From contig JBBCKI010000072.1 in assembly GCA_037190965.1 (NCBI GenBank), forward strand, positions 32,001 to 96,000: a stretch of 64,000 nucleotides of DNA, read 5' to 3'. The translations under genes were made by a program, and so were the position numbers. Shown piece by piece: positions 23,422 to 46,920 of this stretch. This DNA is from Chthoniobacteraceae bacterium. GTDB taxonomy: Bacteria; Verrucomicrobiota; Verrucomicrobiia; Chthoniobacterales; Chthoniobacteraceae. The notes under the pieces were generated by a model. That model saw nothing but the letters and a program-made list of their open reading frames with translations. It searched no databases and was not told where the DNA came from. Position 1 is the stretch's first letter. Each line of letters starts with the position of its first letter.

Positions 23422-24450
23422 ATGGCAAAACCCCCTTCCTCAGCCATCGGCGTTGACCTTGGCAGGCACTCGATGAAAGCAGTGCTTCTTGCGCGCAAAG
23501 GCAATGGCCGTCTCTCGCTCACCCGCTTTGCCACGCGCGATTTGGCCGTTGAGCTCCATACCGCCGATGAACTGGCTGCCAACCTCAAGGCGTTGCTCCA
23601 GGAGCTGGGGGGGAGCGCAAAGGCCTGCGGGATCGCCATTTCTTCCTCCGACTCGTTTTTGCGCATTATCGAGCAGCCCGAGATGGAGCCGGAAACCCTG
23701 CGCGATGCACTGCGGTTCAACAGCCAGATGCTGCTTAACCAGGATTGCAAAGATTTTGTGCTCGATTGCGACCGGATCTCCGCCGATTCGTCCGGGGGAA
23801 ACAATGGGTCCTCGCGCTATATCGTGGGAGGCCTGCCGAGAGCGCAGGTGCAGGTGATCCATGACGCGTGCCTGAAGACGAAGACCCCGATGACGGCGCT
23901 GCAGCTCAGCCCAATGGCGGTTTTCAACGCATTCGAGTTTGCCAATGAGGAAACCTTCAATACCCAGGGGTTCGTCCTTGTCGATATCGGCCATCTCTCT
24001 TCAGAAGTAATTGTCGGGGCAAAGCGCGAGTTGATTCTGGCCCGAACACTTGGCTACGGCGGCAACCATTTTGTGGAAGAGTTGATCTGTCACGGGGCGT
24101 CGGGTCCCGAGGAGGTGGCTCAGGCGCTGGCCGAGGAGGAGGTGCTTACCATCGAGAATGCGCGGCTTTCGCTCACGGAGCTTGTCCGTTCGATCAGTTC
24201 CTCCATCGGATTCGTTGAGGCGCGGCATGAGGTGGCGATCCCGAGAGTTTTTATTTCGGGCGGGATGGCGAAGTCACCCGCGATTCTGAAGATTCTCTCC
24301 GAAGAACTGCAACTCCCGTGCGAAACATGGGACCCCTTTGCCAAATGCGAAGTCGCTGTTCCTGCGGCACGCAAGGAGGCGTTGGGAGGGCAGCTTCCGG
24401 TATTAAGCGCGGCCTGCGGGGCGGCGGCGGAAATTTTGAAAGGACGTTGA
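23422..24450 (+). CDS. pilM: Type IV pilus assembly protein PilM-like
   Basis: Actin-like fold motifs IGVDLGRHSMK, VLVDIG, ISGGMA and WDPF. Confidence 0.85.
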   Translation: MAKPPSSAIGVDLGRHSMKAVLLARKGNGRLSLTRFATRDLAVELHTADELAANLKALLQELGGSAKACGIAISSSDSFLRIIEQPEMEPETLRDALRFNSQMLLNQDCKDFVLDCDRISADSSGGNNGSSRYIVGGLPRAQVQVIHDACLKTKTPMTALQLSPMAVFNAFEFANEETFNTQGFVLVDIGHLSSEVIVGAKRELILARTLGYGGNHFVEELICHGASGPEEVAQALAEEEVLTIENARLSLTELVRSISSSIGFVEARHEVAIPRVFISGGMAKSPAILKILSEELQLPCETWDPFAKCEVAVPAARKEALGGQLPVLSAACGAAAEILKGR

Positions 24451-24459
24451 GGGGAACTC

Positions 24460-25119
24460 ATGGCGCTACATCTTAATTTTTATCACGAAATCCAGCGCGA
24501 AGCTCAGGCCCGGGCGCGGGACCCGGTGAAACTTGCAGGGTTGGCAGGAGCGGCGCTGGCGGTCCTGCTTCTCGCCTACTATGGCTACCGGAGCTACGCC
24601 GTGAGCCGTGTGGAGGCCAAGCTCGCCTCGGTCCAGAAAGAATGGAAACGGCTCGAACCGGCGCAGGCTGAGGCCAAGAAGCGCGAGGCTGAGCTTTTCG
24701 TTCTGCAAAAGAGCAACAAGGCATTGGTCGATCGTCTTCATGGACGCCTCTATTTTGCCCCTCTGCTTGACAAGATTGCGACAGCCACGCCCCCCACGGT
24801 CCAGATCACTTCGCTTGCCGCTGATTACGCCGATCCTGAGAAACCGGCAACGGTCCTGGTTTCGGGCATCGCCGCGGGGCTCCAGCCACGGAGCGCCGCC
24901 GAGGCATTTCGTCTTGCGCTGGAGAAAGAGGTTTCAGGGCAGTATCCGAAAGCGACCGCCAGCTTCGACGCCAACTCACTGGAGGAGGCTGAGGAGAATA
25001 TCGAATGGAGCGGGGAATCGCTTCACACCGCCCGTTTCAAAATTCGGCTGACGCTTGAGGGTCGTCCGCCAGCAAAAGAAGAGGCACCCCCGGCCCCCAA
25101 GAAAGCGAAAACCAAATGA
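24460..25119 (+). CDS. PilN-like protein
   Basis: N-terminal LNF motif, transmembrane helix, coiled coil; follows pilM. Confidence 0.7.
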   Translation: MALHLNFYHEIQREAQARARDPVKLAGLAGAALAVLLLAYYGYRSYAVSRVEAKLASVQKEWKRLEPAQAEAKKREAELFVLQKSNKALVDRLHGRLYFAPLLDKIATATPPTVQITSLAADYADPEKPATVLVSGIAAGLQPRSAAEAFRLALEKEVSGQYPKATASFDANSLEEAEENIEWSGESLHTARFKIRLTLEGRPPAKEEAPPAPKKAKTK

Positions 25120-25676
25120 ATCTGACCAAGGAACAACTTCAGAAGGCCGCGCTGGGAGTGGTGCTCGTCCTTGTCGCCCTGTATGCCTATTTCAGCATGC
25201 TGTTGGGGCCGCTCGGAGCGCGGGAGAAGCGGGCGCAAAAGGCGATGGACGCCCTTGCGCCGAAGATGAAGGAAGCAAATACCCAGATTACCCGGACCCG
25301 CTCCATCGAAGCCGAAGACCCATTTGGAGCGGCGGCTGGAATCGCCCGGGAGGCAATGGCGACGCGCATCCCCGACGGGGCTGCCATCGTCTGGTTGCCG
25401 CAAAGACTCTCGGAGTTTTTCCATAGCCAAGGAATCAAGAAGATTACCTCCAAAGCGGAAGCCGAGCAGGATGATCTTAGCTTGCCGGGCTACCGCCTTT
25501 CGACCTGGCAGGTTAATATCGCCGAAGTCGAGTTTGTGCCTTTTGCCGCTGCCATCGCCGCGATGGAGAACCAGGAGGGCTTGGCACAGATCACCTCCCT
25601 GCGGATTGAGACCAATGCCGCCAACGTTCAATTCCAAAACGCCAGCCTGAAGTTCTCAACCCTGGTTAAAAAGTGA
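25116..25676 (+). CDS. PilO-like protein
   Basis: N-terminal transmembrane helix, coiled coil and alpha/beta domain; overlapping start/stop with neighbours. Confidence 0.65.
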   Translation: MNLTKEQLQKAALGVVLVLVALYAYFSMLLGPLGAREKRAQKAMDALAPKMKEANTQITRTRSIEAEDPFGAAAGIAREAMATRIPDGAAIVWLPQRLSEFFHSQGIKKITSKAEAEQDDLSLPGYRLSTWQVNIAEVEFVPFAAAIAAMENQEGLAQITSLRIETNAANVQFQNASLKFSTLVKK

Positions 25677-26125
25677 AAATCCTCTCTTTTCTTTCCCTGC
25701 TGTCATTGGCTTTTGCCGTGCTTCCCGCCAGCGCTCAAACGGTTGAAGATCTTCAGATCAAAGAGCGGTCGTTTTTTACGGCGTCAACGGCCAGAAATCC
25801 GTTCTTGCCTGTCGGTTGGGCAAAGCCTGAGCCAATCGTTCCTACGGTGGGTAAGCCTGTCAACCCGACGGCCGTGGTGTCGGATGCATTCTTCAAGCCG
25901 GAGCGCTTCGTGGTGACCAGCATTTCCATCGGCGCGCTTCCGCTGGCCTTGATCAATGGGAAAACTTACGGCGAGGGCGACCTCATTCCCGTGGAGGCCG
26001 GGATCAACGTGCAGGTCTATGCCATTCGCGACGGGGAAGTGACTTTGCGTTACCAGAGCAAAACGATCGTTTCGGCGATCCAGAGCGCGGAGGCCAAGAA
26101 GCAAAGGCCGAAGCCGAAGCATTAA
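25673..26125 (+). CDS. PilP/GspC-like exported protein
   Basis: Signal peptide, RNPF motif and ALINGKTYGEGD beta domain. Confidence 0.6.
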   Translation: MKILSFLSLLSLAFAVLPASAQTVEDLQIKERSFFTASTARNPFLPVGWAKPEPIVPTVGKPVNPTAVVSDAFFKPERFVVTSISIGALPLALINGKTYGEGDLIPVEAGINVQVYAIRDGEVTLRYQSKTIVSAIQSAEAKKQRPKPKH

Positions 26126-26230: not shown

Positions 26231-27565
26231 ATGTCGCCTTCTCTTGAATCTCTTTTCGACTTCACCCGGTTTCAGAGCATTTCCGCCGATGCGAATTACA
26301 CCCCGCAGGTGGCGGCGTGTGCGGAATGGCTGAAAAGCCGTTTCCTTGCCATGGGGTTGGAGGCGAAGGCGTACCCGACTGCCGGGCATCCTGTGGTGCT
26401 GGCGCGCAATGTGCCGAGGGCGGATCGTCGCACAGTGCTCATCTACGGGCATTATGATGTGCAACCGGCGGATCCGCTCAATGAGTGGACGACACCTCCC
26501 TTTGAACCTCGCGTGGAGAATGGCATGATCTATGCCCGGGGCATTGCCGACAACAAGGGGCAGATCATGGCGCACATCCTTGGTGTGGAGAAGGCGCTGG
26601 CCGAGAAGGGGGATCTCCCCGTGAACGTGATTTTTCTGGTGGAAGGCGAGGAGGAAATCGGCAGCGGGCATCTGGAAGCCTTCCTCAAGGAGCATCGTGA
26701 GGCGTTGAACCCCCATGTGATCGTCATTTCTGACACCAGCATGGTCGCGCCCGGCGTCCCTTCGTTGGACTATGGGTTGCGGGGTGTTCTGGCGATGGAG
26801 GTTCGCCTGCATGGCGCGGCGACGGATCTGCACTCCGGGAGCTACGGCGGGATCGCGCCGAATCCCGCGATGTTGCTCGCGCGGCTTCTCGCAACGCTTC
26901 ATGACGAGCAGTTCCGTGTGGCGGTGCCGGGCTTTTATGACGCGGTCATTCCCGTTCAGGATTGGGAGCGGAAGGAGTGGGCTCAACTGCCGATGAGCGG
27001 GGAGGAGGATTACAAGAATGAGATCCGTTCTCCCTCCCTTTTCGGGGAGGCGGGATACACGCCGTTGGAGCGGCTCTGGGCCCGGCCCACGGCGGAGGTC
27101 AACGGAATTGGCGGCGGATACCAGGGGCTGGGAAGCAAAACGGTGATCCCGCGCGAGGCCTTTGCGAAGCTGACCTTCCGGCTCGTTCCCAACCAGACCC
27201 CGGAGGAGATCGAGGAGAAGGTGATCGCCCATCTCAAACGGCATTGCCCACCGGAGGTGCGGCTGGAGATCAGCCCCGGGCATGGCGGTGCACCGTTCTT
27301 GTGCGATCCGAAAGGAGCCAACAGCCTGGCCGCGGGTCGTGCGGCAATGCGGACCTGGGGTCAGGATCTGGCACTGATCCGGGGCGGGGGTTCGATTCCG
27401 ATTTTGCAGACTTTCCAGCGGATTCTCGGCGTCGATATCCTGCTTATCGGACTGGCGTGGCCGGGGTGCTGCGCGCATGCTCCCAACGAAAACTTCCCCG
27501 TGGAAAGCTTCGAGACCGGGATCCGCTTCAATCAGGCGTTGCTGGAAGAGCTAGCCGCAGGGTAG
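26231..27565 (+). CDS. M20 family dipeptidase
   Basis: YGHYDVQP, ARGIADNKG, EGEEEIGS, DLHSG and HAPNE motifs. Confidence 0.94.
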   Translation: MSPSLESLFDFTRFQSISADANYTPQVAACAEWLKSRFLAMGLEAKAYPTAGHPVVLARNVPRADRRTVLIYGHYDVQPADPLNEWTTPPFEPRVENGMIYARGIADNKGQIMAHILGVEKALAEKGDLPVNVIFLVEGEEEIGSGHLEAFLKEHREALNPHVIVISDTSMVAPGVPSLDYGLRGVLAMEVRLHGAATDLHSGSYGGIAPNPAMLLARLLATLHDEQFRVAVPGFYDAVIPVQDWERKEWAQLPMSGEEDYKNEIRSPSLFGEAGYTPLERLWARPTAEVNGIGGGYQGLGSKTVIPREAFAKLTFRLVPNQTPEEIEEKVIAHLKRHCPPEVRLEISPGHGGAPFLCDPKGANSLAAGRAAMRTWGQDLALIRGGGSIPILQTFQRILGVDILLIGLAWPGCCAHAPNENFPVESFETGIRFNQALLEELAAG

Positions 27566-27639
27566 CGAGGGCGCGGGAATTTTGCGCGGCGGGGGCAATC
27601 TCGCCGTGCGCCGCCGGGGCGGGTTCTTACGCTCGTGGC

Positions 27640-29595
27640 ATGATTAAGACTGCGTTGACGCTGACAGGGGATCAATTGCAACGGATGGCCCGCTATGTGC
27701 GCCATCGGATCGAGGGGATCGAGGCCGCCCGGAGCCATGGGTGGATTGCCGACCGCGAACGGTTCGACCGGGAGTGGAACGATGACTTTTCGCACAGGAG
27801 CCGGGAGAGTGCGGTTTTTGCGAAGTCCAACGAATCGCTGAACATGGTTGGCTCCGGGGTTGACTATATCCGCTCCCGGATCATGGAGGAGATCTTCGGG
27901 AGCAAGCCGTGGTTTTCCGTCGATTCGAAATCGCGCCGAAGCGGCGGGGCGGCGCTTTCCGATCAGGTGGCGCGGCATCTCCGCTGGAAGCTGGGTCAAG
28001 ATCAGATCAACTTCGAGGGAGTGGCGGTCGATCTGATCACGCAGGCCTGCAAGATGGGGGAATGCGTGGCCAAGATTTTTTACAAGACTGACGAAGAGAG
28101 CTTCGAGCGGATTGCCTCGATTTTGTGGGATACGGAAACCGCTTCGCCGGTACTGACCCCGGAGGGCGATTTTATTTTTGAGGAGGACGCGCATCTTTCA
28201 GGGCAGAGGAGTGGCGAGTCTGAGGCGGAATGGAGACCGGGGCAGGAGGGTTCCTCGGCGGCGCCCAAGCCGTTGCCACCCGGAACCTGCTGGAAGGAGC
28301 AGATTGTCTCGGAGCACCGGGTCCATTACACCGGGGCGAAGGCGGTGCCCATGCACTTCAAGGACTTCTATTGCCCCTTGAATGCGCCCTCGATCCACGA
28401 GGCCGACTTTGTGGCGCACAGGACTTCCATGCGTCTGTCGGATTTGTGCAGGCATCTCGGCATTTCTCCGGAGACTTTCGCTGACCGAGGGGAGGAGAAC
28501 TATCTCGCGCGGGCCTTGGAGCAAATCCGACGGGCGGGCGCGCGCGCGGAGACGGGGGCGGAACAGCCGCGGGCGGGAGAAGGCGAGGAGCCGGATGCCG
28601 CCGAAGCCGATCCGGAGTTCCGGCTGGTGGAGGCTTACTTTCAATTCGACGCGCGGGACGATGGCCGCTCCTGCCGGATCTTCATGATGATGGCGTATGA
28701 CTTCGATCTACCCATCTTCTGGGACTACAGCGCCAACGTGACTCCGGGCGGACGCTATCCGTTCGAAGCCGTGGTCATCAACAAGGAGCCGCATCGTTGG
28801 TACGGGAAGAGCTGGTTCAAGAAGTACGAGAAATTTCAACAGTTGATCGACAAGCTCCTCAATCAGATCCTTTATCGAAATGAGCTCGCGGCCAATCCCG
28901 TCAAATTCCGTCGCAAGGAGGCGGTGGTGCAATGGCAGGATGATCAACCGTTCGAGATCGGACCGGACAAGGTGTTCGATCTCAACGACGGCTACACCGC
29001 TGACGACGCCTTGCAGACGGCGAAGATTCCCGAGTTGGACGAGCAGACGAAATATCTCCTTGAAACCGTGGTGTCCAGTTGGCGGACCCGGTCGGGAGTG
29101 ACGACGGCGACACAGGGGATGTTCGGCGGTCTCCCCTCGGAGCATACCGCCACGGGGGTGGCGCAGATCGTGGAAAGCGGCACCACGATCTTCAAACCAC
29201 AGGTCCTGGACATCAAGCGGGGTTTGGAGGCCGTGCTCAGGCAGTTGGTGACGCATCAGTATACCTGCCAAACGACGGACGAGACGTTCACGTATATGGA
29301 GGGGAATGAACGTGTCCAGGGGACGCTCTCCTGTGAAAGCGTGCGCAATCTGGATTTCAATATTGAACTGACTTTGACGCGCGCTCGCCAGATCCGACGG
29401 CTTGAAGCCGCGCGGGTGGGGGCGGAGTTCTTCAGTAAATTCCTGGCCGTTCCCGACGAGTTCAAGCCGGTGGCGGCTCCGCTTTTCGCGACGATTTACA
29501 AGAACCTCGAAATCGACAACGCCGACGACTATTTCCGGCAGGCTGTCGAGATTGCCCGGGAGCGGGACAATGAAACGAAGGAGGCACGCGCGTGA
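27640..29595 (+). CDS. Phage portal-like protein (podovirus/P22-like type), 651 aa
   Basis: Portal-like size and motif order: G..VAKI, YPF...RWYGKS....Q..IDK..NQ......ANP, SGV....QG and TATGV; start ATG 27640. Confidence 0.7.
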   Translation: MIKTALTLTGDQLQRMARYVRHRIEGIEAARSHGWIADRERFDREWNDDFSHRSRESAVFAKSNESLNMVGSGVDYIRSRIMEEIFGSKPWFSVDSKSRRSGGAALSDQVARHLRWKLGQDQINFEGVAVDLITQACKMGECVAKIFYKTDEESFERIASILWDTETASPVLTPEGDFIFEEDAHLSGQRSGESEAEWRPGQEGSSAAPKPLPPGTCWKEQIVSEHRVHYTGAKAVPMHFKDFYCPLNAPSIHEADFVAHRTSMRLSDLCRHLGISPETFADRGEENYLARALEQIRRAGARAETGAEQPRAGEGEEPDAAEADPEFRLVEAYFQFDARDDGRSCRIFMMMAYDFDLPIFWDYSANVTPGGRYPFEAVVINKEPHRWYGKSWFKKYEKFQQLIDKLLNQILYRNELAANPVKFRRKEAVVQWQDDQPFEIGPDKVFDLNDGYTADDALQTAKIPELDEQTKYLLETVVSSWRTRSGVTTATQGMFGGLPSEHTATGVAQIVESGTTIFKPQVLDIKRGLEAVLRQLVTHQYTCQTTDETFTYMEGNERVQGTLSCESVRNLDFNIELTLTRARQIRRLEAARVGAEFFSKFLAVPDEFKPVAAPLFATIYKNLEIDNADDYFRQAVEIARERDNETKEARA

Positions 29596-29861
29596 CGCCG
29601 GAACAGAAGATGGAGCGGGTGGCCGAGATCGCTCAGGAATTGACGCTGCTCAATCGTCTGCCCGCGGAAGGGGCGGCGATTCTGGACCGCGAGCTGGAAC
29701 GGCTCGTGGCGTTTCATACCGAGAAATGCTGCGATTGCAGGCTCCCGCCCGAGCAAAGCGCGATGCACCGGGAGGCCCGTGCCCTCGCGCGCGGTCTGCT
29801 CGGGTTTTTCGACAAGCGGAAGACCGCGCTCAAGGACGAGTTGGGCCAGTTGCGGCGATAG
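29592..29861 (+). CDS. Small helical hypothetical protein coupled to the portal-like gene
   Basis: GTGA start/stop overlap; SD-like GGAGG upstream; 89 aa. Confidence 0.7.
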   Translation: MTPEQKMERVAEIAQELTLLNRLPAEGAAILDRELERLVAFHTEKCCDCRLPPEQSAMHREARALARGLLGFFDKRKTALKDELGQLRR

Positions 29862-29918
29862 GTACAGTAACCACTCCGGTTGGAACAGCCGCTTCGGCAG
29901 CAGGCTGCGTTGTCAACA

Positions 29919-29952
29919 TCAAGCTGTTATCTACGGATAGCAGCTTGAGTTT
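29919..29952 (+). terminator. Stable hairpin with cUACGg tetraloop, probable terminator
   Basis: TCAAGCTGTTATC-TACG-GATAGCAGCTTGA, 13 bp including one G-U pair; only a short T run follows. Confidence 0.55.
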
Positions 29953-30008
29953 CCTCCTTGCCTGGGAAAAGAATCCGGCGGTCGACGCGACTCAGCGTTG
30001 ACTGGATA

Positions 30009-31916
30009 CTAGATCCCGTTCCTCCTGCGGCGGAGCAGGAACGCTGCAAGAGCCGCGCTTCCGGTCAAAGCCCACGTCGTCGGTTCAGGCACCGCAGCCA
30101 GGATCGTATAACCGCCAAGATTATGGTAGCCGGTGTAGTTATACGCGTCGCCTTCGTTCAGGAAATAGAGCGCTTCGAAGCCGCCGGTGTCGGTCGTGAC
30201 CCAGGCATCGCCATCCCAAACCTGGAAAACTCCTTGACCAAGGAGAGTTGTCAGGTCGGAGCGGCGATCGCCATCCCACGCGAAAAAGCCGCCATCGAGG
30301 CGCAGGAGATTATTGGTGCCGCCATTCTGATTCATAACAAGGTTGCCGCCGAGGGAAAACAGCGCCTTGTCCGCGATCGTAATGGTATTGTCACTCCCGA
30401 AATTTCCGAAAGTCAGGTCCCCGGAGTTATTCCAGATGGAGCCCTCTCCGGTCACAACAACAGTATTATTCTTTGCATTGGCATTCGATTCACCGATGCC
30501 GGTGCTGCCGCTCTCCAAAAGGGCTCCACTTTCAACCTTCAGGCTTTGCCAGCTGGAGAAGCTTCCGACACTCAGGACCGTCGTGCTCCAGGAGGTTCCC
30601 TCTCCTTTTACCGTGACCGAGTGCCCGGTTCCCGAATAACCGACCGTTCCGGTTCCGCTCGTCACGGTAGCTCCGTTCTGGATGGTGATGGAGTTGGATG
30701 TCCCGGACCGTGCGCCAAGCTCACCGGAAAGAGTCACCTGAGTCCCCGGTCCCGTGATGAGAATCGAGTTGTTCACTGCCCTAGAGCCTCCTCCAGCACG
30801 AATAATGGCTCCGTCTACCGTAGCACCGTCTTGAATTGTCAATGTGTTGTTGGGCCCGGCCTCTCCCACTGTTACCGATCCGGTGAAGGAGGTGCCAGTG
30901 CCGGTAATGAGCATGGAGTTTGAAGAACCAAGCGTACCGCTGGCAATGAGGGTGGCGACGCTTGTGGAACTCACGACGACCGCCCCATCCTGGATGGTCA
31001 GGGAATTTCCTGTGCCGTGGCTACCGACCCGGAATCGACCGGTCGTGGTGATGCTGGAACCGGATCCACTCACCACGATCGAATTGCTGCTCCCCCTGAC
31101 GCCGTCATTCCCTCCACCAACGTAAATATCACTCGCGGAAGTCCAGGAACCGCCATCTTCGATAGTCAAGGAATTATTGTTCCCGAAAGCGCCGATTTGA
31201 TTGGCACCGTAATTGGTAGTTACCAAGGTAGAGCCGGAGCCTGAAATGAGGGCCGTATTGTTCTTCCCTCGACCGGCGGTATTGCTGTTGCCCCATCCAA
31301 CCACGAAAGACGAGAAAGTCACTGAGGCTCCATCCAGAATCTGCAACGAGTTCGAATCGCCCTCCTGCCCAATACTGGCATAAGTACCCGATAGAACCGT
31401 GCCGGATCCCTTCACCGTCACCGAATTACCGTTCGAACCCAGATTGTAACCGGCTGAAAGCCCTATATTGGAAGACACCAGCCCGAATCCGAAATACCCC
31501 CCATCCTCAACCGTCAAGGAGTTATTGCTCCCATTGTAGCCTATTAAAACGTTGCCGTTCCCCGCAAAACGGGAACCCTCCCCGGTAACCTTGAGCGAGT
31601 TTCCCCCGCTGGTCTGGTTATATCCGAGGCTCGCCAAACTGTCTCCCACCACGGCGGAGCCGTTGCGAATAATCAATTCATTGTAGGATGTGGTGCTTCC
31701 CGTTGTCATTGCGCCGGAAAAAGTTTTGGGAAACGCTTCCGTATCTCCAATGATATATTGTGCCTTGTCTACCTCTGTGCCTCCTGAATTCATAAGCTCT
31801 GGCACTGAGTTATCCACGCTGACAATTCCTGCATGGGCTGGAGTCATAATCGAAGACACCGCCAGGGAACTGAGAGCGAGGGTTACAGCAAAGGCACGAG
31901 AGGAAATTGAATTCAT
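30009..31916 (-). CDS. PEP-CTERM surface protein with Gly/Ser/Asn-rich beta repeats
   Basis: Signal peptide; repeated NSLTI.DG..V and V.G.GS units; C-terminal VPEPTTWAL, transmembrane helix and RRRR. Confidence 0.92.
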   Translation of the reverse strand: MNSISSRAFAVTLALSSLAVSSIMTPAHAGIVSVDNSVPELMNSGGTEVDKAQYIIGDTEAFPKTFSGAMTTGSTTSYNELIIRNGSAVVGDSLASLGYNQTSGGNSLKVTGEGSRFAGNGNVLIGYNGSNNSLTVEDGGYFGFGLVSSNIGLSAGYNLGSNGNSVTVKGSGTVLSGTYASIGQEGDSNSLQILDGASVTFSSFVVGWGNSNTAGRGKNNTALISGSGSTLVTTNYGANQIGAFGNNNSLTIEDGGSWTSASDIYVGGGNDGVRGSSNSIVVSGSGSSITTTGRFRVGSHGTGNSLTIQDGAVVVSSTSVATLIASGTLGSSNSMLITGTGTSFTGSVTVGEAGPNNTLTIQDGATVDGAIIRAGGGSRAVNNSILITGPGTQVTLSGELGARSGTSNSITIQNGATVTSGTGTVGYSGTGHSVTVKGEGTSWSTTVLSVGSFSSWQSLKVESGALLESGSTGIGESNANAKNNTVVVTGEGSIWNNSGDLTFGNFGSDNTITIADKALFSLGGNLVMNQNGGTNNLLRLDGGFFAWDGDRRSDLTTLLGQGVFQVWDGDAWVTTDTGGFEALYFLNEGDAYNYTGYHNLGGYTILAAVPEPTTWALTGSAALAAFLLRRRRNGI

Positions 31917-32172
31917 AGTCACTGAGAAACTCTCAGATTTTAGAAAACTGCGCCGCGTGGGGAAGAAAATTCCGGCATGCCTCTGGGGATGGTGTATCGA
32001 AGCATTTGCAAGTTCTTGATATCGAGCATCTTGCATTCGAGGTGGCAAGAATACGTAATATTACTTAGTTGGCTTGGATGGTCTGCTCTGCCGCCTGGCG
32101 GACGGTGAATACCTCCGGATCAGGTTGTGTCCACGATTTAGTTGCCTTTTGGCAATTCGTGACTTGGACGAC

Positions 32173-36237: not shown

Positions 36238-36267
36238 TTGACGCGGATAAGGGAAGATTGTTAGAAC
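36238..36267 (+). promoter_or_regulatory. Putative sigma70 promoter for the autotransporter
   Basis: TTGACG, 18 nt, then TAGAAC with an upstream TG; followed by hairpin GCTTTTATC/GATAAAAGC at 36276-36299. Confidence 0.45.
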
Positions 36268-36371
36268 GCGTCCCGGCTTTTATCGAAAAAGATAAAAGCA
36301 AGCACTTGAAACTTGGGAACCCTCGCCGTCGCAGAGGAAAAGCACGGCTTAAAAAATCCGAATATCTGCAC

Positions 36372-39300
36372 ATGAACAACGGAACACGCCTCTTTAAACA
36401 AACCGCCCTACAGGCAAGGGCCCGCTCTGCGGGTCGCGCGTTGGGTAGTACACTTTCTGCCGCGGTGCTTGCCTCCGCAATGATGGCGGGAAGCTCGGCC
36501 TTTGCCGCCGACATCGTCGTTGATAATCCTGCCAGCCCGTTGGTTCTGACCAATTCAGAACAGATCAACATCGAGAACGTTTATCTTCAAAACGGTGCTG
36601 AAATTCAGGGAAACGGTACCGCCGATATTCTCGCCAGCGGAACCTTCGCGCTGGAGAGCGGCAGCGTTCTTCAGGTAGGTCTCGGTGGAACTGCCGGGCT
36701 TGAGAAAACGACAGCAGGATGGGTTACGCTGACAGGGTCGAATTCCTATACCGGCACCACGGAAGTCTTTGGAGGGACCTTGCAGATCGGTGACGGGGTT
36801 ACCGGCTCGCTCAATAGCGCCAGCGCGGTCAATATCCGCATCAACGCGCGCGTTGAACTGAACCTCGCTTCAGGCAGCACTTTTGCCAACAACGTTTACA
36901 TCGAGAAAGTAGGCGGGGACTTCGGGAATTTCGTGGTGAATTCCTCGGGAACCACGACGATTTCCGGAGTAATCTCCGGCGGCGGCGGCTTCTTTCAGTT
37001 GAACTCTGACGGTCACACGATCCTGACCGGCGAGAATACCTCCACTGGCGCGTATGGTGTCGAGGGGGGGACATTGCAGATTGGCGACGGAACCACAGGC
37101 TCGATCAGCTCCGCTGCCTCTGTTTATATTCATGACTCTGCTCAGCTCCTGATCAACCTCGCGGACAACGGGGTTTTCGCTAATGACATCGGCAACGGTG
37201 GCTTGCTTCAGACGATCGCCAACGGGACCAATACTCTCGCGGGAGCGATTTCCGGCACGGGCGCATTTATACAGTCCGGGTCCGGTACCACGATCCTCAC
37301 CGGGACAAACACCTACACGGGATATACCGCAGTTAGTTCCGGCACGCTCCAGATCGGTGACGGCGTCAGCGGGTCGATCAATGATTTGAGCGACGTCTAT
37401 GTGGAAGAGGCCGGCTCGCTGGTTCTCCACCTGCGTAACGACGGCATCTTCGGTAGCGACGTTTACAATGATGGCAAGGTCTTCACCTCTGCCTCCGGCA
37501 CCAACACGGTCTCCGGCGTCATCAGCGGTACGGGTTCTCTGACCCAGAACGGCAATGGAGTTACAATCCTCGACAACCAGAACACTTACAGCGGTGCCAC
37601 CTCGGTGCTGAGCGGCACGTTGAAGGCAGGCGCTGATTACGCCATCTCCTACGAATCCGCGGTTTCGGTTGACGCAGGAAGCACCCTCGACTTGCGGTAT
37701 ACCGACCAGGAGATCGGCTCCCTGTCCGACGGCGAGAACGGCGGCGGGACCGTCCGGATCCGCCGTGGCGAACTCAGGACCGGCTACGACAACACCGACA
37801 CCACCTTCAGCGGTTCCATCACCGGCTGGCGCGGTCGGTTGGTCAAGACCGGCAATGGTACCTTTACGCTTACCGGGGCCAATACCTACACCGGCAGCAC
37901 GGTTGTTGCCTCCGGCACGTTGCAGATCGGCGACGGCGTCAGTGGTTCGATCAGCGCCCAGTCCCGCGTCTACATCGACAGTGACGCCAGCTTGGTGCTG
38001 AATCTCGCTGACGGCAGCGAGTTCGAAAACCGCATCCGTAACCGGGGCTCGATCTTCTCGATTGCCGACGGAACGACGACGATCTCCGGGCGCATCAGCC
38101 GCGGCGGCGACTTCTACCAGGCCGGTACCGGAACGACGATCCTCACCGCCAACAACACCTACTGGGGGAATACCTACGTTCAGAGTGGCACTCTTCAGAT
38201 TGGTGATGGATCGACTTACGGGTCCGGCATCTCCAATTCGGAATACGTTCAGGTTGACGCGAATGCAACGCTCGCCATCAAGCTTGCTCATAACGACGAG
38301 TTCAACAACGATGTGACCAACAACGGCACAGTCCGTTCCATCGTTGGCGAAGTGGAAATCGTTCCAGATGACTGGGTTCCCGCGGTCAATAACATCTCGG
38401 GCCAGATTGTTGGCACGGGTGGATTCATCAAAGAAGGCAAAGGAACGACGGTCTTTACCAACGCATACAATGATGATCCCTCGTATGATACCGCGCATTA
38501 CTACGCAGGGGATACCGAGATCCGTGAAGGGACGTTGAAGACGGACGGGTTGTGGAACCTCAGCATCTATTCCAAGCATAACGTTTCAGAAGACGCCGTG
38601 CTGGATCTGAACGGGTATAATCAGAATATCCGGGCGCTGACTGGCGCCGGTCGTGTGGAGAATATCGATGGCGATCTCTACATCGGGTATTTGTATGACT
38701 TCGACGAAGAGGACTGGGTGATCGGGGAGTCGAGCGATTATGGTGTGTTCGACGGCGTCCTGGCCGGATCGGGAAATATCTATAAAGGCGGTTACGGCCT
38801 CTGGGCTCTCAACGGGGAGAACACCTTCGACGGTTACCTGGAGAATAATGCGGGGGCGATCGCGCTCAATGGCTCCATTGAGGCGCAGGTTGACAACAAC
38901 GCCTTCTTCTTCGGAAACGGCTATGTCGGTGGTGGCTTCCACAACCATGGAGAACTGATTGCGCTCGATTACGAGACCGGTAATCCGGGAACTCTTACCA
39001 TCGGTGAAAACTTCGAACAATTCGACGACTCCATCTACTACGTTGCGGTCAAGTCGGCGAAGAACCACAGCAAGGTCGAAGTGCTTGGAGAAGCTCATCT
39101 CGACGGCACTGTCGTTCTGACTTCGTTTTCCAAATACAAGCCCAAGCGCGACGACAAGTTGACGATCCTCACCGCTGACGATGGCGTCGAAGGTAAGTTC
39201 GACAAGCTCGAGAGCCGGCTGCAGAAAACGATGCTCAAGCCGAAGCTCGTCTATAAAGACGACAAGGTTATCGTCGAATTCCAGCAGCGGAAGTTCGCGA

Positions 39301-40517
39301 GCCTCTCGGGCCTCACGCCGAACCAGAAGGCAGTCGCTCGCGCCCTCGACAAGGACTCGAACCGGAAGAGCCTCAACAAGCTGTTCGACAAGCTTAACGA
39401 CCTCGATTTCGACGACGTCCCCGGCGTTCTGGCAAAACTCTCGCCTGAGCAGTTCGCGGCGATCTTCAACATCGGGTTTGCAACCTCTCAGTTGCAGTTC
39501 ACCAACATCGAGCGCCGCCTCGACGACGTCCGCCGTGGTAAGGCTGGCTTCAGCACGAACGGCCTCGCGTTGAGCAACTCGCATGGCACGCTCAATTACG
39601 ACGGCATGCCGATCGTCAACGAGAAGAACGGCCTGACCCTCGCGGGCTGGGACGGCAAGAGCGTCGTCGGCAAGCAGACGGTGGCCCCGGTCATCTCTGA
39701 GAGCCGCTGGAGCTTCTTCGCAACCGGCAGCGGCGAATGGGCGGACGTGGAATCCACCCGCAATGCTCGCGGTTCCGACTTCCGTACGGGCGGCGTGAAC
39801 ATCGGTGCGGACTACCGCGTCAACGAGAACCTCGTTCTCGGTATCACGGCGGGTTACACGAATACGACCTCGGACCTGTTTGACGGCGGCAAGATCGACG
39901 TCAACAGCGGACGCGGCGCGGTCTACGGCACCTGGTTCAACGATGGGTTCTACGTGAACGCCCTCGCGGGCGGCGCGTACAACTCGTACGACACCAAGCG
40001 CTCGACCTTCGGCGGCAAGGCTCATGCGAGCCCCAACGGCGGTGAGTTCGACGCGTTGCTGGGTGGTGGTTACGACTTCTGCGTCGGCGGGTTGACCGTC
40101 GGGCCGATCGCTTCGTTGCAGTACACCTACCTCGGGCTGAGCAGCTTCAATGAATCGGGTTCCGATGCACCGCTGCACTTCCGCTCGCAGCATCAGGATT
40201 CGTTGAAATCCACCCTCGGTCTGAAGGCGGCTTACACCTTCAATATCGGGAGTGTGGCGATTACGCCGGAAGTTCGCGCTCAGTGGGTGCACGAGTACCT
40301 CGACAGCACCGCTGCGGTTGAATCCAGCTTCGCTTCGGGTGGCAGCACGTTCACGGTGAACGGCCCGAACATCGGTCGCAATGGGGTCCTGATCGACGCG
40401 GGTGTTTCCGCCCAGATCACCCAGGGCGTCTCGGTGTTCGCTTACTACACCGGTGATTACGGCCGCACGAATTACACTTCCAATAGTGTGAACGGCGGTT
40501 TCCGGATCAACTTCTAA
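36372..40517 (+). CDS. Autotransporter with passenger-associated (PATR) repeats and C-terminal beta-barrel
   Basis: Repeated G.GTT.LTG.NTYTG.T.V..GTLQIGDG units; LTPNQKAVA linker; barrel ending GGFRINF. Confidence 0.94.
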   Translation: MNNGTRLFKQTALQARARSAGRALGSTLSAAVLASAMMAGSSAFAADIVVDNPASPLVLTNSEQINIENVYLQNGAEIQGNGTADILASGTFALESGSVLQVGLGGTAGLEKTTAGWVTLTGSNSYTGTTEVFGGTLQIGDGVTGSLNSASAVNIRINARVELNLASGSTFANNVYIEKVGGDFGNFVVNSSGTTTISGVISGGGGFFQLNSDGHTILTGENTSTGAYGVEGGTLQIGDGTTGSISSAASVYIHDSAQLLINLADNGVFANDIGNGGLLQTIANGTNTLAGAISGTGAFIQSGSGTTILTGTNTYTGYTAVSSGTLQIGDGVSGSINDLSDVYVEEAGSLVLHLRNDGIFGSDVYNDGKVFTSASGTNTVSGVISGTGSLTQNGNGVTILDNQNTYSGATSVLSGTLKAGADYAISYESAVSVDAGSTLDLRYTDQEIGSLSDGENGGGTVRIRRGELRTGYDNTDTTFSGSITGWRGRLVKTGNGTFTLTGANTYTGSTVVASGTLQIGDGVSGSISAQSRVYIDSDASLVLNLADGSEFENRIRNRGSIFSIADGTTTISGRISRGGDFYQAGTGTTILTANNTYWGNTYVQSGTLQIGDGSTYGSGISNSEYVQVDANATLAIKLAHNDEFNNDVTNNGTVRSIVGEVEIVPDDWVPAVNNISGQIVGTGGFIKEGKGTTVFTNAYNDDPSYDTAHYYAGDTEIREGTLKTDGLWNLSIYSKHNVSEDAVLDLNGYNQNIRALTGAGRVENIDGDLYIGYLYDFDEEDWVIGESSDYGVFDGVLAGSGNIYKGGYGLWALNGENTFDGYLENNAGAIALNGSIEAQVDNNAFFFGNGYVGGGFHNHGELIALDYETGNPGTLTIGENFEQFDDSIYYVAVKSAKNHSKVEVLGEAHLDGTVVLTSFSKYKPKRDDKLTILTADDGVEGKFDKLESRLQKTMLKPKLVYKDDKVIVEFQQRKFASLSGLTPNQKAVARALDKDSNRKSLNKLFDKLNDLDFDDVPGVLAKLSPEQFAAIFNIGFATSQLQFTNIERRLDDVRRGKAGFSTNGLALSNSHGTLNYDGMPIVNEKNGLTLAGWDGKSVVGKQTVAPVISESRWSFFATGSGEWADVESTRNARGSDFRTGGVNIGADYRVNENLVLGITAGYTNTTSDLFDGGKIDVNSGRGAVYGTWFNDGFYVNALAGGAYNSYDTKRSTFGGKAHASPNGGEFDALLGGGYDFCVGGLTVGPIASLQYTYLGLSSFNESGSDAPLHFRSQHQDSLKSTLGLKAAYTFNIGSVAITPEVRAQWVHEYLDSTAAVESSFASGGSTFTVNGPNIGRNGVLIDAGVSAQITQGVSVFAYYTGDYGRTNYTSNSVNGGFRINF

Positions 40518-43308: not shown

Positions 43309-43830
43309 GTGAATGTCCTCTCAAAACTGTTCGATTTAGGAGCATGGTATTTCTCTCCCGGGCTCTCCATTCCGGAGGGAGTGACCCCGGTATCGGGTTT
43401 TAACGCGCAACGTTATCTTGGCCGGTGGTACGAAATCGCCCGGTTCGATCATTTTTTCGAAACGGGTTTGAGTCGCGTGATGGCGGATTATTCGATGCGC
43501 GAGGACGGATCCATCGATGTGTTTAATCAGGGTTTCGACGCCCGTAGGTCGAAATGGCAGGAGGCGCGGGGGATTGCGCGCTTCATGAGCACCCCGGACA
43601 TCGCGAGCCTGAAGGTCTCGTTCTTTTGGCCCATCTGGGGCGCTTATCACGTCTTTGCCCTCGACCATGCGGACTACCGGTGGGCCATGGTTGCCGGGGC
43701 AACCCACTCCTATCTCTGGATCTTGAGCCGGGAGAAAACCATGGAGCCTGACCTGCTGGAGTCTTTGCTCCAGCAGGCTCGGGCTGCGGGGGTCGATACC
43801 GGCAAACTGATGCTCGTCGCTCAGGAGTGA
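43309..43830 (+). CDS. blc: Lipocalin family protein
   Basis: RYLGRWYEIAR, LKVSFFWP and YLWILSR motifs. Confidence 0.9.
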   Translation: MNVLSKLFDLGAWYFSPGLSIPEGVTPVSGFNAQRYLGRWYEIARFDHFFETGLSRVMADYSMREDGSIDVFNQGFDARRSKWQEARGIARFMSTPDIASLKVSFFWPIWGAYHVFALDHADYRWAMVAGATHSYLWILSREKTMEPDLLESLLQQARAAGVDTGKLMLVAQE

Positions 43831-46796
43831 GGCGCCTTGGCTAACCAGTCCGCCACGGCTTTGCATTCCTTTCTCCCCAGCCGGAGGAAAGCGGTCTCAG
43901 CCCACTGCGCCGGTGTGGTCCGGTGCTCTTCATCCGTTAAAGCCGAGTCCGCCCCATTCGCGAGGAGGATCTTGACCAGAGAAAGCTGCCCATGCCATGC
44001 CGCCGCGTGGAGCAGCGTGCCTTTTGACTGGTCGGCATTCCGCCCATTGACCGGCAGCCCTTGCGTGAGCATCCATTCCACCACGGTGGTCTGCCCGGCT
44101 TGGATGGCGGCGACGGCGGTGGCCGGGTCGCGGGCGATCTCCGGATCGAACTCCGCGGCGGCCTGGAGACGCGCCAGATCGCCCAGCGCCGCGTAGACCC
44201 ACGGGGGAGCTTCCGCTCCCTGTTCGAGCAACAGGCGGAGGAGAGGAGCGGTCTCGGCAACGGTTTCAGGGCCAGCCGAGACGATCGACTCCAGAGGCGT
44301 CTGCCCGAAGCGGTCTTTGCGGTCAAGCGGTGCGCCAAGGGCGAGAAGCCGTTGCGCCGCTGCGGTTGTGCGCGCAAAGCGGATCGGCGAAGCAAGGCTG
44401 GGGAAGGCCCGGGTCACGCTCTCCGGATCGCTTTTGAGGAAAGCTTCGACCCGGGCGTCATCGCCCAGCATCAACGCTTCGGGCAGGCCGATGAATGCGC
44501 CGCGTTGCACGAGCGTCTGCGCCATCGCTCGCCGACGGTTATGCAGCGCAAGGAGCAGCGGCGTCCAGCCATCGTAAGACGCATCCTTCCCGTCGATGTC
44601 TGCCCCGGCGGCGATCAACCAGTCGAAGATCGGCCGGTTTCCGCGTTCGATGGCCACATGCAACGCCTGGGGAGTCCCTCCCCAGAGCGGGTGAGGCGCA
44701 GGCTGGCTGATAAGTTCGGGATTTCCGGCGACCATCGTCTTGAGAGAGGCAAGGTCCTCACCCGTGCTCTCGCTGATCGCGCGAAGAAAACGCCGGGGCA
44801 GGTCATCCTGTTCCGGAGCGCGCTTGCCTCCTTTTCCGGTGAGAAAGGCGATCATCGGGTGTCGGCCCCGGTCGATGGCAAACTCAAGCGGGGTCCAGCC
44901 GTCAGCGGCGGGAGCGTTGATGTCCGCGCCGAATCGCAGCAGCACTTCGGCGGTTTCCGGCGTGGAGGACCATTCCCCGCAATGATGCAGCGGCCGCATT
45001 TCTTCCTCCTTCGGGTTGACGGCTTCGACATCCGCGCCCGCTTCGCAAAGAAGGCGGACGATCTCCGCGCTACGCTCGGGGTGCCTGCGGTTGCGACAGG
45101 CCCAGTGTAGCGCCGTCATCCCTTCGGGGTCGGTCGTCTTCGCGGCCTTCGGGTTCTGCTGCAGGCATTCACGCACGCGGTTAAGGAGGCCGAGCGTGCA
45201 GGCGGTCCAAAGATCGATCTCCGCACCCCGGCGAATCAGTTCATCCGCCACCGCCTCGCCTTCCGGGAAGGCCCCGTAAACACAGGCCGCCCGGTAGAGC
45301 GCGGTGCGACCCTCGGCGTCGGGTTGGTTGAGCAATTCGGGCTCGTCCTCGATGCGGCGGATGACCTCTTCCTTCAGGCCGCAACGCGCCAGCGACGGGA
45401 GATCGGCGTCGGTGCCGTGGTCTACCAGCAGTTGGGCAATCTCATGCATGCGAGGGCGGTGCCAGACGCACTTGAACGCGATCCCTTCCACGGCGGTTCC
45501 TTCCCAGCGCGGCGACCAGGGATGGCTGTTGGTGAGCTCGGGGTGCTCGTGGAGGAGCCGGTGCACGGTGTCGATTTCACCCTCGTTAATGGCGTCGAGA
45601 AAACCCTTCGCGGCTTCGGGAGCCACTACCGGGGCAGGGGATGCAGGGGCTGCTGGTGCTCCGAATCGGGAGAGAAGGCGCGTTTCCCTGGCGTTGCAGG
45701 CGGCGTATTCCACCGCCGTAAGCCACTGTGGTTTGCTGGCTCCAGTGTGATCGGGCGGAGCCAGCATCGCTCGGAGGCTCCAGTCGATGCGGCTCGATTC
45801 CCTCTCCAGAAGATGCCGCAGCAGCTTGAAGTGCGCGCCCTTCCACGATTGCACGGCATGGAACAGCGGTGTTTGCGTGCCGGTACCATCTTCGCGGGGC
45901 TCCGCCCGGGCGTTGATATCCGCGCCGCGATCGAGGAGCAGATCGACGCATTCGGTTTCGCCAAAATCAATGGCAAAATGCAACAGCGTGGCTCCTGCGA
46001 GATCGGGATTCCCGCGCCCCGCAAGTTCAGGGAACCGACGGGTGATCAGGCCGGGATCGGCATCGAGAAACCCAGCCAACCGGGCGCGGTCGCCGCGCAG
46101 GATGGCGAGGAAGACGTCGTCCTGGTGCACCGCGCCGTGCTCGATGAGAAGGTCGAGGCAACGATGCCGCGAGGCATTGCTCCCCCGAACATACGTCCAC
46201 GCAGCATGAAAGAAGGGTGTCATCAGGCCATATTTGGTGGGGATCGGCTCGAAGGAGACATCGGCCCCATGGGCGAGGAGATACTCCAGCCCATCGACGT
46301 CCACCCCTTCGCAAACGGCAAAGACGATCGGCCCGTAGTTGCCGCCGTACTGCCCATTGGGGTTGGCCCCGACTTCGATCAGCAGATCGGCAATCGCGTA
46401 CCGGAGGGCGCGGGTGTTGCGTCCGCCCCCGCCGCAGATGCCGCGAGCAAGGGCGAGATCGAGGTCGTGCTGGCCGGGAGTGGCTTGCTTCAGAATCTCT
46501 CGCACGCGGACAATGTCCTTGCGGTTGGCCGCGCTGACCAGCGTGTCGGAGGCCTGGAGAATGATTGGCGGGTTCACGACCGCTTCCACATACGCTTTCA
46601 GCGCGCGCCAGCTTGGGAACCCATATTCCCTGGCGAGGGCGAACTGGGCTTCGGTGAGCTTTGTTGCCGGGGAGGCAACTCTCAAGGTTTTGAGCCGTTG
46701 CTTGGCTTCATTGCGGAGCCGCTCCAGATTGGGGCGAATGGGGAGCGAACGCTTCGATGGCGTTGGCGTCGGAGACGATGAATCAGATTTGGACAT
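43821..46796 (-). CDS. Large ankyrin-repeat protein with conserved N-terminal helical domain
   Basis: Multiple TPLH/TALH ankyrin repeats; N-terminal LP.RPNLERLRNEAK...AQFALAREYGFPSW; SD GGAAGG before ATG 46796. Confidence 0.9.
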   Translation of the reverse strand: MSKSDSSSPTPTPSKRSLPIRPNLERLRNEAKQRLKTLRVASPATKLTEAQFALAREYGFPSWRALKAYVEAVVNPPIILQASDTLVSAANRKDIVRVREILKQATPGQHDLDLALARGICGGGGRNTRALRYAIADLLIEVGANPNGQYGGNYGPIVFAVCEGVDVDGLEYLLAHGADVSFEPIPTKYGLMTPFFHAAWTYVRGSNASRHRCLDLLIEHGAVHQDDVFLAILRGDRARLAGFLDADPGLITRRFPELAGRGNPDLAGATLLHFAIDFGETECVDLLLDRGADINARAEPREDGTGTQTPLFHAVQSWKGAHFKLLRHLLERESSRIDWSLRAMLAPPDHTGASKPQWLTAVEYAACNARETRLLSRFGAPAAPASPAPVVAPEAAKGFLDAINEGEIDTVHRLLHEHPELTNSHPWSPRWEGTAVEGIAFKCVWHRPRMHEIAQLLVDHGTDADLPSLARCGLKEEVIRRIEDEPELLNQPDAEGRTALYRAACVYGAFPEGEAVADELIRRGAEIDLWTACTLGLLNRVRECLQQNPKAAKTTDPEGMTALHWACRNRRHPERSAEIVRLLCEAGADVEAVNPKEEEMRPLHHCGEWSSTPETAEVLLRFGADINAPAADGWTPLEFAIDRGRHPMIAFLTGKGGKRAPEQDDLPRRFLRAISESTGEDLASLKTMVAGNPELISQPAPHPLWGGTPQALHVAIERGNRPIFDWLIAAGADIDGKDASYDGWTPLLLALHNRRRAMAQTLVQRGAFIGLPEALMLGDDARVEAFLKSDPESVTRAFPSLASPIRFARTTAAAQRLLALGAPLDRKDRFGQTPLESIVSAGPETVAETAPLLRLLLEQGAEAPPWVYAALGDLARLQAAAEFDPEIARDPATAVAAIQAGQTTVVEWMLTQGLPVNGRNADQSKGTLLHAAAWHGQLSLVKILLANGADSALTDEEHRTTPAQWAETAFLRLGRKECKAVADWLAKAPHS

Positions 46797-46920
46797 AAAC
46801 CTTCCTTCCAAGGGTGCCCGATGTCCGCGATCCCGGGCGGGAAGTTAGGTTGTTTGTTTGTCGCAAACCGAGTAGGCTTTGCCCTTTACGCGGACCGTTG
46901 GTGTCTCGAATCACCGGGTT
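46797..46920 (-). promoter_or_regulatory. Candidate cis-regulatory structured RNA leader
   Basis: Nested helices plus an alternative pairing that covers the SD sequence. Confidence 0.55.

Follow-up and report, generated by a model that had tools for sequence, protein, structure and literature searches.

A phage-type portal gene in the Chthoniobacteraceae probably belongs to a scattered, vertically inherited set of head and DNA-packaging genes

A 64-kb stretch of DNA from a Chthoniobacteraceae bacterium (C72:32001-96000, hereafter the window; the source genome, G000, is a 4.21 Mb assembly of 73 contigs with an estimated completeness of 97%) carries a gene for a phage portal protein; portals form a ring at one vertex of the capsid, and DNA is pumped through it. 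Judging from sequence comparisons, we consider it very probable that this gene encodes a functional portal within a selected, scattered set of head and packaging genes. With less assurance, we also consider it probable that the set constitutes a gene transfer agent (GTA)-like head and DNA-packaging kit that has been fixed in the host and inherited vertically in a clade of the Chthoniobacteraceae. As predicted here, the kit is made up of three blocks, namely the portal gene with an 89-amino-acid partner in the window, a terminase-like gene on contig C56 and a head module on contig C66 (Table 1), and as far as it was traced its products would form head, neck and motor only.

Results

A predicted portal of the SU10/N4 podophage type

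The product of the portal gene, P0001, matched the Pfam family SU10_portal over residues 74-515 (91.3 bits against a cut-off of 30, E-value 6.5e-26) and no other Pfam family at E-values up to 1, and it matched the portal proteins of PHROG 1216 with an E-value of 3.9e-21. A protein database yielded 63 homologues, all 63 of which contain PF23899 and none of which is functionally named. While sequence and profile searches of solved structures with the portal returned nothing relevant, an AlphaFold2 model built with 19 homologues as input (mean predicted local distance difference test score, pLDDT, 72.7; predicted template modelling score 0.65; low confidence at residues 408-513) was compared to the Protein Data Bank using Foldseek, and all of the matches listed were phage portals or portal-containing assemblies. 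The best of these were from Pa223, SU10, N4, DEV, cyanophage A4, VP1, PaP3 and T7 (E-values 1.6e-17 to 1e-8), with a probability of 1.00, a template modelling score on the query of 0.31-0.47 and an identity to solved portals of 9-15%. Because the Pfam, PHROG and fold matches point the same way, we conclude from sequence and predicted fold that the gene is a real, intact portal gene of the SU10/N4 podophage type. A first-pass annotation of the window had already proposed a portal and suggested a structural comparison, which returned the portal fold; its likening of the protein to P22-type portals did not hold up, as SU10_portal was the only Pfam family found and no P22 entry was among the fold matches listed. 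Like the portals of the podophages SU10, N4, Pa223, DEV, PaP3 and T7, the protein has the portal fold, and it belongs to the Pfam family of SU10; unlike podophage portals, it is encoded in a bacterial chromosome, away from the usual neighbours.

The reading frame is open without interruption over its 651 codons and its G+C content is 0.596, compared to 0.598 for the window, in agreement with the unbroken frame and host-like composition first described. It is the only copy of this portal family in the source genome. The ATG at 27640 is backed by relatives, whose alignments begin at residue 1-2 and which have the N-terminus in common; the public gene call (P0003, 636 amino acids) starts at 27685 and is 15 residues shorter, and the N-terminus conserved among orthologues supports the predicted longer form. 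Searches of cultured phages with the portal matched two Paenibacillus phages only (26% identity over 29% of its length), and exact peptide patterns taken from it had no match in viral contigs. A search of 1.84 billion cluster representatives returned 433 matches with an E-value <=0.001, three of them above ~49% identity and the others at no more than 33%.

Matching genes elsewhere in the genome

A gene encoding 599-611 amino acids lies directly upstream of the portal gene in three relatives (G001, G002 and G005), and its G002 and G005 copies match the terminase large subunit of PHROG 2 (E-values 1e-9 to 4e-12). Its counterpart in the source genome, on C56, matches PHROG 2 (E-value 2.5e-12) and PHROG 24361 (E-value 9e-6) and is 71% identical to the G002 copy. 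Columns that we read as P-loop-like, Walker-B-like, coupling-motif-like and acidic nuclease-like are invariant in seven of seven sequences of this protein. The order terminase, small gene, portal seen in some of the relatives resembles that of Paenibacillus phage API480. A small open reading frame (ORF) of ~95-111 amino acids with no Pfam match lies opposite the terminase-like gene (C56:3232-3567, minus strand) and is conserved beside it in G000, G001, G002 and G005; in three of these four genomes it stands between terminase and portal, and either strand may be the coding one.

The head module on C66, a row of four genes, was located through the genes of a prophage-like region in the congener G002 (described below). 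It encodes a scaffold-like protein, a major capsid protein, a small protein and an adaptor-like protein, and it is conserved as a block in changing contexts among relatives. The capsid protein had 41 remote matches among cultured phages, at ~25% identity. In a language-model search, the 310-amino-acid protein resembled clusters carrying SU10_adaptor (score 0.96-0.97); this embedding similarity makes the adaptor identity a lead only. When the proteins of phage API480 were compared to the source genome, only the portal was matched, and two capsid matches (E-values 0.4-0.5) led nowhere; the Pfam family SU10_MCP had no match in the genome and was silent for the controls too, and this result is hence uninformative. 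The portal gene, which had been called solitary at first, is so within the 64-kb window but not in the genome, where the search suggested at that stage for isolated terminase and capsid genes turned up the terminase-like gene on C56 and the capsid gene in the head module on C66.

The gene for PtsI adjoins the head module in the source genome (C66:20332-22098) and lies directly upstream of the portal gene in G004 (locus L010 531-2297). This hints at an earlier arrangement in which the portal pair adjoined the head module, with rearrangement breakpoints falling at the module borders.

Distribution and scatter in relatives

To follow the three blocks among relatives, their occurrence was compared in 41 genomes, the source genome and 40 others. 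The portal, terminase-like and capsid genes were each found in exactly the same 8 of these 41 genomes, a count that overstates the statistical weight of the co-occurrence since relatives are not independent samples. Besides the source genome, the carriers of all three genes comprise five of five congeners and two of 19 genomes from other genera of the family, and none of the 16 genomes from other families of the order. One congener, G002, has two copies of each gene. Identities of the chromosomal copies to those of the source genome range from 67-78% for the portal and 69-82% for the terminase to 84-93% for the capsid protein. Five further portal-bearing genomes were added from public loci; the capsid gene was present in all five and the terminase gene in four, the miss being a metagenome bin. 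A scan of one genome per species returned 18 portal loci, all of them in Chthoniobacteraceae, 'Spartobacteria' or Verrucomicrobiota bins, and the carriers are a group of soil and lake Verrucomicrobia.

The shared occurrence bears on the idea that the portal works by itself as a ring channel or decoy and that its association with terminase and capsid genes is incidental. Such a role would suit the window, in which only the 89-amino-acid partner stands beside the portal gene, among housekeeping genes. We regard it as very improbable, because the portal gene co-occurs with terminase and capsid genes and has an upstream element in common with the head module (see below); the phyletic patterns of the three genes are identical in the 41 genomes, including the double copies in G002, and the portal gene adjoins the terminase gene in three relatives. 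The first-pass annotation had offered two roles, a host-maintained portal in a scattered GTA-like gene set or a lone ring channel or decoy; the former stands as far as co-occurrence and selection can speak to it, and the latter has become unlikely.

The scatter of the three blocks is real and not an effect of assembly, because it is also seen on a closed chromosome (CP170506.1, 5.62 Mb), which has its capsid gene at 0.70 Mb, its portal gene at 1.26 Mb and its terminase gene at 2.25 Mb; ordinary genes fill the intervals of 0.55 and 0.99 Mb that separate the blocks. The flanks of the portal gene vary by genome and are of housekeeping type, including PtsI, RecD2 with XseA and RecA, a pseudouridine synthase, and LysR with AcrB, and an 858-amino-acid conserved protein is encoded next to the portal in several genomes.

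Selection and descent

None of the portal orthologues read in 17 relatives contains an internal stop codon. The terminase-like gene is intact in eight of eight loci read in relatives, and the capsid gene is complete in seven of eight, the eighth being cut by a contig end. Ratios of nonsynonymous to synonymous substitution rates (omega or dN/dS), estimated under the codon model GY+F3X4 (for the portal, nine sequences and 617 codons), came to 0.070 (portal), 0.023 (partner), 0.060 (terminase) and 0.053 (capsid gene). For the closest pair of genomes, G000 and G004 (dS 0.56-1.19), dN/dS was 0.124 for the portal, 0.172 for the partner, 0.111 for the terminase and 0.079 for the capsid gene, compared to 0.052 for PtsI and 0.136 for the ABC-F protein, which served as controls. 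These estimates indicate that the genes of the kit are under purifying selection, with dN/dS like that of housekeeping controls. The dN/dS comparison of orthologues proposed at the outset was thus answered by values well below 1 and near the controls, with no decay in 17 of 17 portals.

Phylogenetic analysis of 26 portals placed the 17 chromosomal copies in one clade (Shimodaira-Hasegawa-like approximate likelihood ratio test support 100) and, inside it, the genus in a subclade of its own (98). The sister group of the 17 consists of the second G002 copy, on contig C7, and one database protein, and forms of 760-800 amino acids lie further out. This topology agrees with a single capture at the root of a Chthoniobacteraceae subclade and what would have been vertical descent thereafter.

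These results speak most directly to the possibility that the genes are leftovers of a decaying prophage. They are of phage origin, and other phage debris is present on C34, C51 and C62 of the source genome. Intact portal genes in 17 of 17 cases and intact terminase-like genes in eight of eight, in genomes that span three genera and more, are at odds with such a relic, as are an omega of 0.05-0.07, control-like dN/dS, a tree that follows taxonomy and host composition. Intactness, selection and descent refute decay, barring recent transfers of an active element, and we give leftovers the least credence of all the alternatives considered.

A conserved element upstream of the portal gene and the head module

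A stretch of approximately 70 nt ahead of the portal start is conserved among 14 orthologues, whose upstream genes differ. The alignment was made from these 14, with four loci left out by eye, and a profile of the element recovered all three left-out chromosomal loci (E-values 3.7e-6 to 2.2e-4 in 920 nt), while it had no match at the prophage-like copy on G002:C7. The 5' part of the element contains a TTGACA-type hexamer with a conserved lead-in, followed 17-18 nt on by a G+C-rich block. The motif TACGCT that had been pointed out ahead of the start codon (27628-27633) was found there and lies within the 3' part. A scan for sigma-70-type promoters upstream of the portal gene returned none.

The 5' half of the element recurs at C66:16034-16068, ~40 nt upstream of the head module's first gene. 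With a profile made from portal loci only, this site was the second-best non-self match in the whole source genome (E-value 0.41), and three of seven head-module upstream regions of relatives were matched (E-values 9e-6 to 1.5e-4 in 2.5 kb). After one iteration the profile matched six of the seven, and across the source genome only the C66 and C72 sites were significant. We read this as a putative promoter or operator shared by two of the three blocks, the portal and the head module.

A prophage-like relative and other phage genes

Homologues of every traceable gene of the kit are found in the congener G002 on contig C7, at ~95-151 kb. Their identities to the source genome are 65% for the terminase, 38% for the scaffold-like protein, 77% for the capsid protein, 39% for the adaptor-like protein, 53% for the portal and 42% for the partner. 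The region also contains genes for RecT, an exonuclease, a DnaC-like loader and an endolysin, as well as a small-terminase-like gene, which has no counterpart in the source genome, and a tail-fibre-like gene. Cellular-type genes, for example one encoding a glycosidase-like protein, lie between its terminase, head module and portal; by its gene content the region appears prophage-like, and it cannot be called one intact prophage. In contrast to the chromosomal kit, it is without the conserved upstream element and its portal branches outside the chromosomal portal clade.

The same region offers some support to the idea that the genes of the kit are owned not by the host but by an active mobile element or phage, so far unrecognised, whose genes are spread out, as its terminase, head module and portal lie about 10-30 kb apart and wide spacing may therefore be ancestral. 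Distances of 0.55 and 0.99 Mb between the blocks of CP170506.1, filled with ordinary genes, do not suit an element of this kind; there is also no integrase among the ORFs of the window, no repeats flank the portal and its partner, and the congeners fall together in one subclade of the portal tree. We find ownership by such an element very hard to credit.

Three other phage-like regions of the source genome were considered as parts of the kit and set aside. C62:11700-23800 (locus L022 3706-15816), reached through a search for the Pfam family Phage_capsid, is an ordinary myovirus-type prophage with its own terminase and portal. It encodes a terminase that is a strong match (PHROG 15), a portal (PHROG 21) and a fused protease-capsid protein (PHROG 617) together with head closure, baseplate and tail fibre genes, and it is unrelated to the kit. 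The long same-strand cluster at C34:24000-42600 (locus L020) has a capsid gene (PHROG 1005) that is sporadic, occurring in 3 of 41 genomes. At C51:6698-10129 (locus L019), a gene for a 263-amino-acid protein occurs in 4 of 41 genomes and an endolysin gene in 8 of 41, a set of eight other than that of the carriers; these genes are likewise sporadic. The C51 region is a short tail and lysis remnant that ends in the endolysin gene and has weak homology to the tail and lysis side of G002:C7.

The partner gene and the neighbourhood of the pair

Directly 3' of the portal gene, a helical protein of 89 amino acids (P0002) is encoded from a GTG start that overlaps the portal stop codon by 4 nt. The partner ORF is found in this position at 16 of 17 loci in relatives, the 17th having a contig end there, and the 4-nt overlap is retained in most of them. 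It is also present beside the prophage-like copy on G002:C7. Forty columns are invariant among ten sequences of the protein. P0002 had no match in Pfam, PHROG or PADLOC, and its best score in a protein atlas was 0.78, which gave no lead.

Table 1. Features of the portal locus in the window and of the matching blocks on contigs C56 and C66.
Feature	Position	Strand	Basis
Conserved non-coding element upstream of portal gene	27574..27639	+	Aligned upstream regions of orthologues
Portal protein gene P0001, 651 amino acids, SU10/N4-type podophage portal family (predicted)	27640..29595	+	Pfam PF23899, PHROG 1216, Foldseek
Partner ORF P0002, 89 amino acids, helical, GTG start	29592..29861	+	Found directly after portal in relatives
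Hairpin between convergent partner ORF and PEP-CTERM gene	29919..29948		Minimum-energy and centroid folds
Large-terminase-like gene	C56:1417-3222		PHROG 2, synteny in relatives
Head module, four genes in a row	C66:16107-20329		
Scaffold-like protein, 321 amino acids	C66:16107-17072		
Major capsid protein, 486 amino acids	C66:17262-18722		PHROG 334, E-value 3.3e-25; Pfam PF13252, 54.5 bits, cut-off 23
Small protein of head module	within C66:18933-19385		
Adaptor-like protein, 310 amino acids	C66:19397-20329		Language-model similarity

The pair is flanked upstream by an M20 peptidase gene (26231-27565) and downstream by a PEP-CTERM gene on the minus strand (30009-32048), the setting given by the first-pass annotation and supported by a Pfam scan of the window. 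The same scan of 51 window ORFs found no phage-family match and no integrase, and a search for direct or inverted repeats on either side of the pair gave nothing meaningful or att-like, as had been remarked from the sequence. Between the partner ORF and the PEP-CTERM gene, the hairpin described there was confirmed, folding into a stem of 13 pairs and a loop of 4 nt in an enclosing region (29862-29990) with a z-score of -2.44. It has no T run after the stem and was not listed by a terminator scan; it is possibly a two-way terminator.

Further upstream of the portal gene are PilM-like and related genes, followed by the M20 peptidase gene, such that the portal comes just after genes for pilus assembly (window 23422-26125). 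On C56 the terminase-like gene lies just before two pilus-type (PilB/PilT) ATPase genes and a prepilin peptidase gene (C56:3320-8703), and the adjacency of terminase and pilus-type ATPase genes is seen again in G003. The closeness of the portal and terminase-like genes to pilus genes may be chance. Downstream of the PEP-CTERM gene, likewise on the minus strand, lies an ABC-F ATPase gene, and further on are genes for an autotransporter and a MatE transporter. The autotransporter (window 36258-40517, plus strand) has 1419 amino acids and contains passenger-associated transport repeats as well as a beta domain at its C-terminus. A 996-amino-acid protein (window 43821-46811, minus strand) contains many ankyrin repeats (Pfam Ank_2, E-value 5.5e-53), which is unusual for a free-living bacterium.

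Discussion

Our favoured interpretation, a GTA-like head and packaging kit owned by the host, suggests the following course of events. Some signal would switch on the three blocks together. Portal rings, perhaps with the 89-amino-acid partner, would nucleate procapsids made of the C66 capsid and scaffold-like proteins, which the terminase-like motor would fill with DNA, and the adaptor-like protein would close or extend the neck. The filled heads would then be released as GTA-like particles, either without tails or with tails taken from another source. Because the blocks lie up to a megabase apart, the packaged DNA would presumably not hold the whole set, and particles that cannot carry all of their own genes are a hallmark of GTAs. 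Tail-less heads or tails from elsewhere are possible because no tail or lysis genes of the kit were found. Among the features expected of a GTA, we find phage-derived structural genes that are fixed, vertically inherited and under purifying selection; a tail or other delivery device and a lysis function were not found, the tail-like and lysis genes of the source genome being sporadic.

Several observations weigh against this interpretation. The terminase-like protein has no Pfam match, a profile search of solved structures with it was empty and its fold model (pLDDT 50.9) is too poor to use, such that the terminase label draws on a weak PHROG match, synteny and our reading of motifs and is itself weak. 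The 310-amino-acid adaptor-like protein also has no Pfam match, and tblastn against phages was empty. Synonymous sites are saturated in the tree-wide fits behind the omega values (the portal tree has a length of 12 substitutions per codon), and all carrier genomes except one are metagenome bins. With respect to coordination, the upstream element was found in none of eight regions upstream of the terminase gene, the head module has only the 5' half of the portal's element, and the iterated scan of the source genome is partly circular in that both of its sites are in the profile. Finally, no tail, lysis or small-terminase gene was found with the phyletic pattern of the kit, the tail-like and lysis genes tested being sporadic, and for the tail-fibre-like and large proteins near the G002:C7 portal the source genome offers only short partial matches. 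These partial matches to tail-side genes of G002:C7, in the C34 and C51 clusters, have identities of 39.8% over 118 amino acids and 27.7% over 119 amino acids; divergent or unrelated tail genes of the source genome could have been missed by the search.

Two alternatives draw on this lack of tail and lysis genes. In the first, the genes would serve as an anti-phage device, in which portal, capsid and terminase made by the host mix or compete with those of phages of the G002:C7 type, spoiling assembly or diverting tails, and gene transfer would not be selected. A congener contains a prophage-like element whose terminase (65% identity), capsid (77%) and portal (53%) are homologous to those of the kit, which means that such phages meet these hosts, and a device acting inside the cell would need neither the tail nor the lysis genes that our searches failed to find. 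We nonetheless judge this unlikely: it would not obviously call for the upkeep, at an omega of 0.05-0.07, of conserved terminase columns, an adaptor-like protein and a full head module, PADLOC returned no matches at E-values up to 0.01 for the portal, the partner and the terminase-like protein, and we met no experimental precedent. In the second, the heads would be a protein compartment, or a store or export vehicle for DNA without gene transfer, and they might stay in the cell or hold other cargo. Only head and packaging genes are conserved and no lysis gene shares their pattern, as would then be expected. On the other hand, the kit has parts by which DNA enters and leaves, namely the portal, the terminase-like motor and the adaptor-like neck protein, with which encapsulin-type compartments are not known to be equipped, and nothing in our results indicates cargo; we think this alternative improbable, more so than the anti-phage device.

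The favoured GTA-like interpretation could be extended. It is conceivable, though we lean against it, that the kit is the first GTA-like system of the Verrucomicrobia (Planctomycetes-Verrucomicrobia-Chlamydiae group), independently tamed from a podovirus, reduced to head, neck and packaging motor and laid out in three blocks as much as a megabase apart, of which at least the portal and the head module fire from a shared promoter-like element, and that its tail-less, DNA-filled heads become infective by means of the tails of related phages. The kit would then be a host-owned counterpart of the tail-stealing satellites known as phage-inducible chromosomal islands of the capsid-forming kind (cf-PICIs).

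In the GTA of Rhodobacter capsulatus (RcGTA), the terminase, portal and capsid genes form one prophage-like cluster. Here, unlike in RcGTA, they are split by 0.5-1 Mb and the portal belongs to the SU10/N4 podophage type; genes for a tail, lysis or regulation were not found, and particles and transfer are predicted features. No sequence kinship of the kit with RcGTA was seen, though no search was aimed at it. RcGTA comprises at least 24 genes in five loci and is widespread in Rhodobacterales (PMC5026251). The kit resembles RcGTA and other GTAs (viriforms) in that structural and packaging genes of phage origin have been fixed in the host chromosome at multiple loci and are inherited and selected. 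The cf-PICIs release tail-less, DNA-filled capsids that later take up phage tails (10.1101/2025.02.11.637232), and they share with the kit their own capsid and DNA-packaging genes and, as far as the kit was traced, the lack of an encoded tail. They differ in being compact, self-packaging mobile islands, whereas the genes described here are scattered, would not fit into one package and follow the host phylogeny; no compact island, integrase or att site was found among the window ORFs or flanking the pair. Tail borrowing by this kit is speculation on our part. Among the literature matches listed, and within the portions of text they provided, there was no description of such a system in Verrucomicrobia or Chthoniobacter or as a domesticated tailless set.

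We know of only a handful of independent GTA lineages, each of which has changed views of bacterial DNA exchange and of the taming of viruses. The candidate described here differs from them in coming from a new phylum, in its podovirus-type ancestor, in the splitting of its core genes and in having no tail genes in the searches made. If the interpretation is true, it becomes testable whether capsids owned by a host borrow the tails of phages and how scattered genes of viral origin stay in step, and the shared upstream element provides a direct handle on the coordination of such genes. When these genomes are annotated, a portal, terminase or capsid gene standing alone should not be taken as prophage debris or bin contamination.

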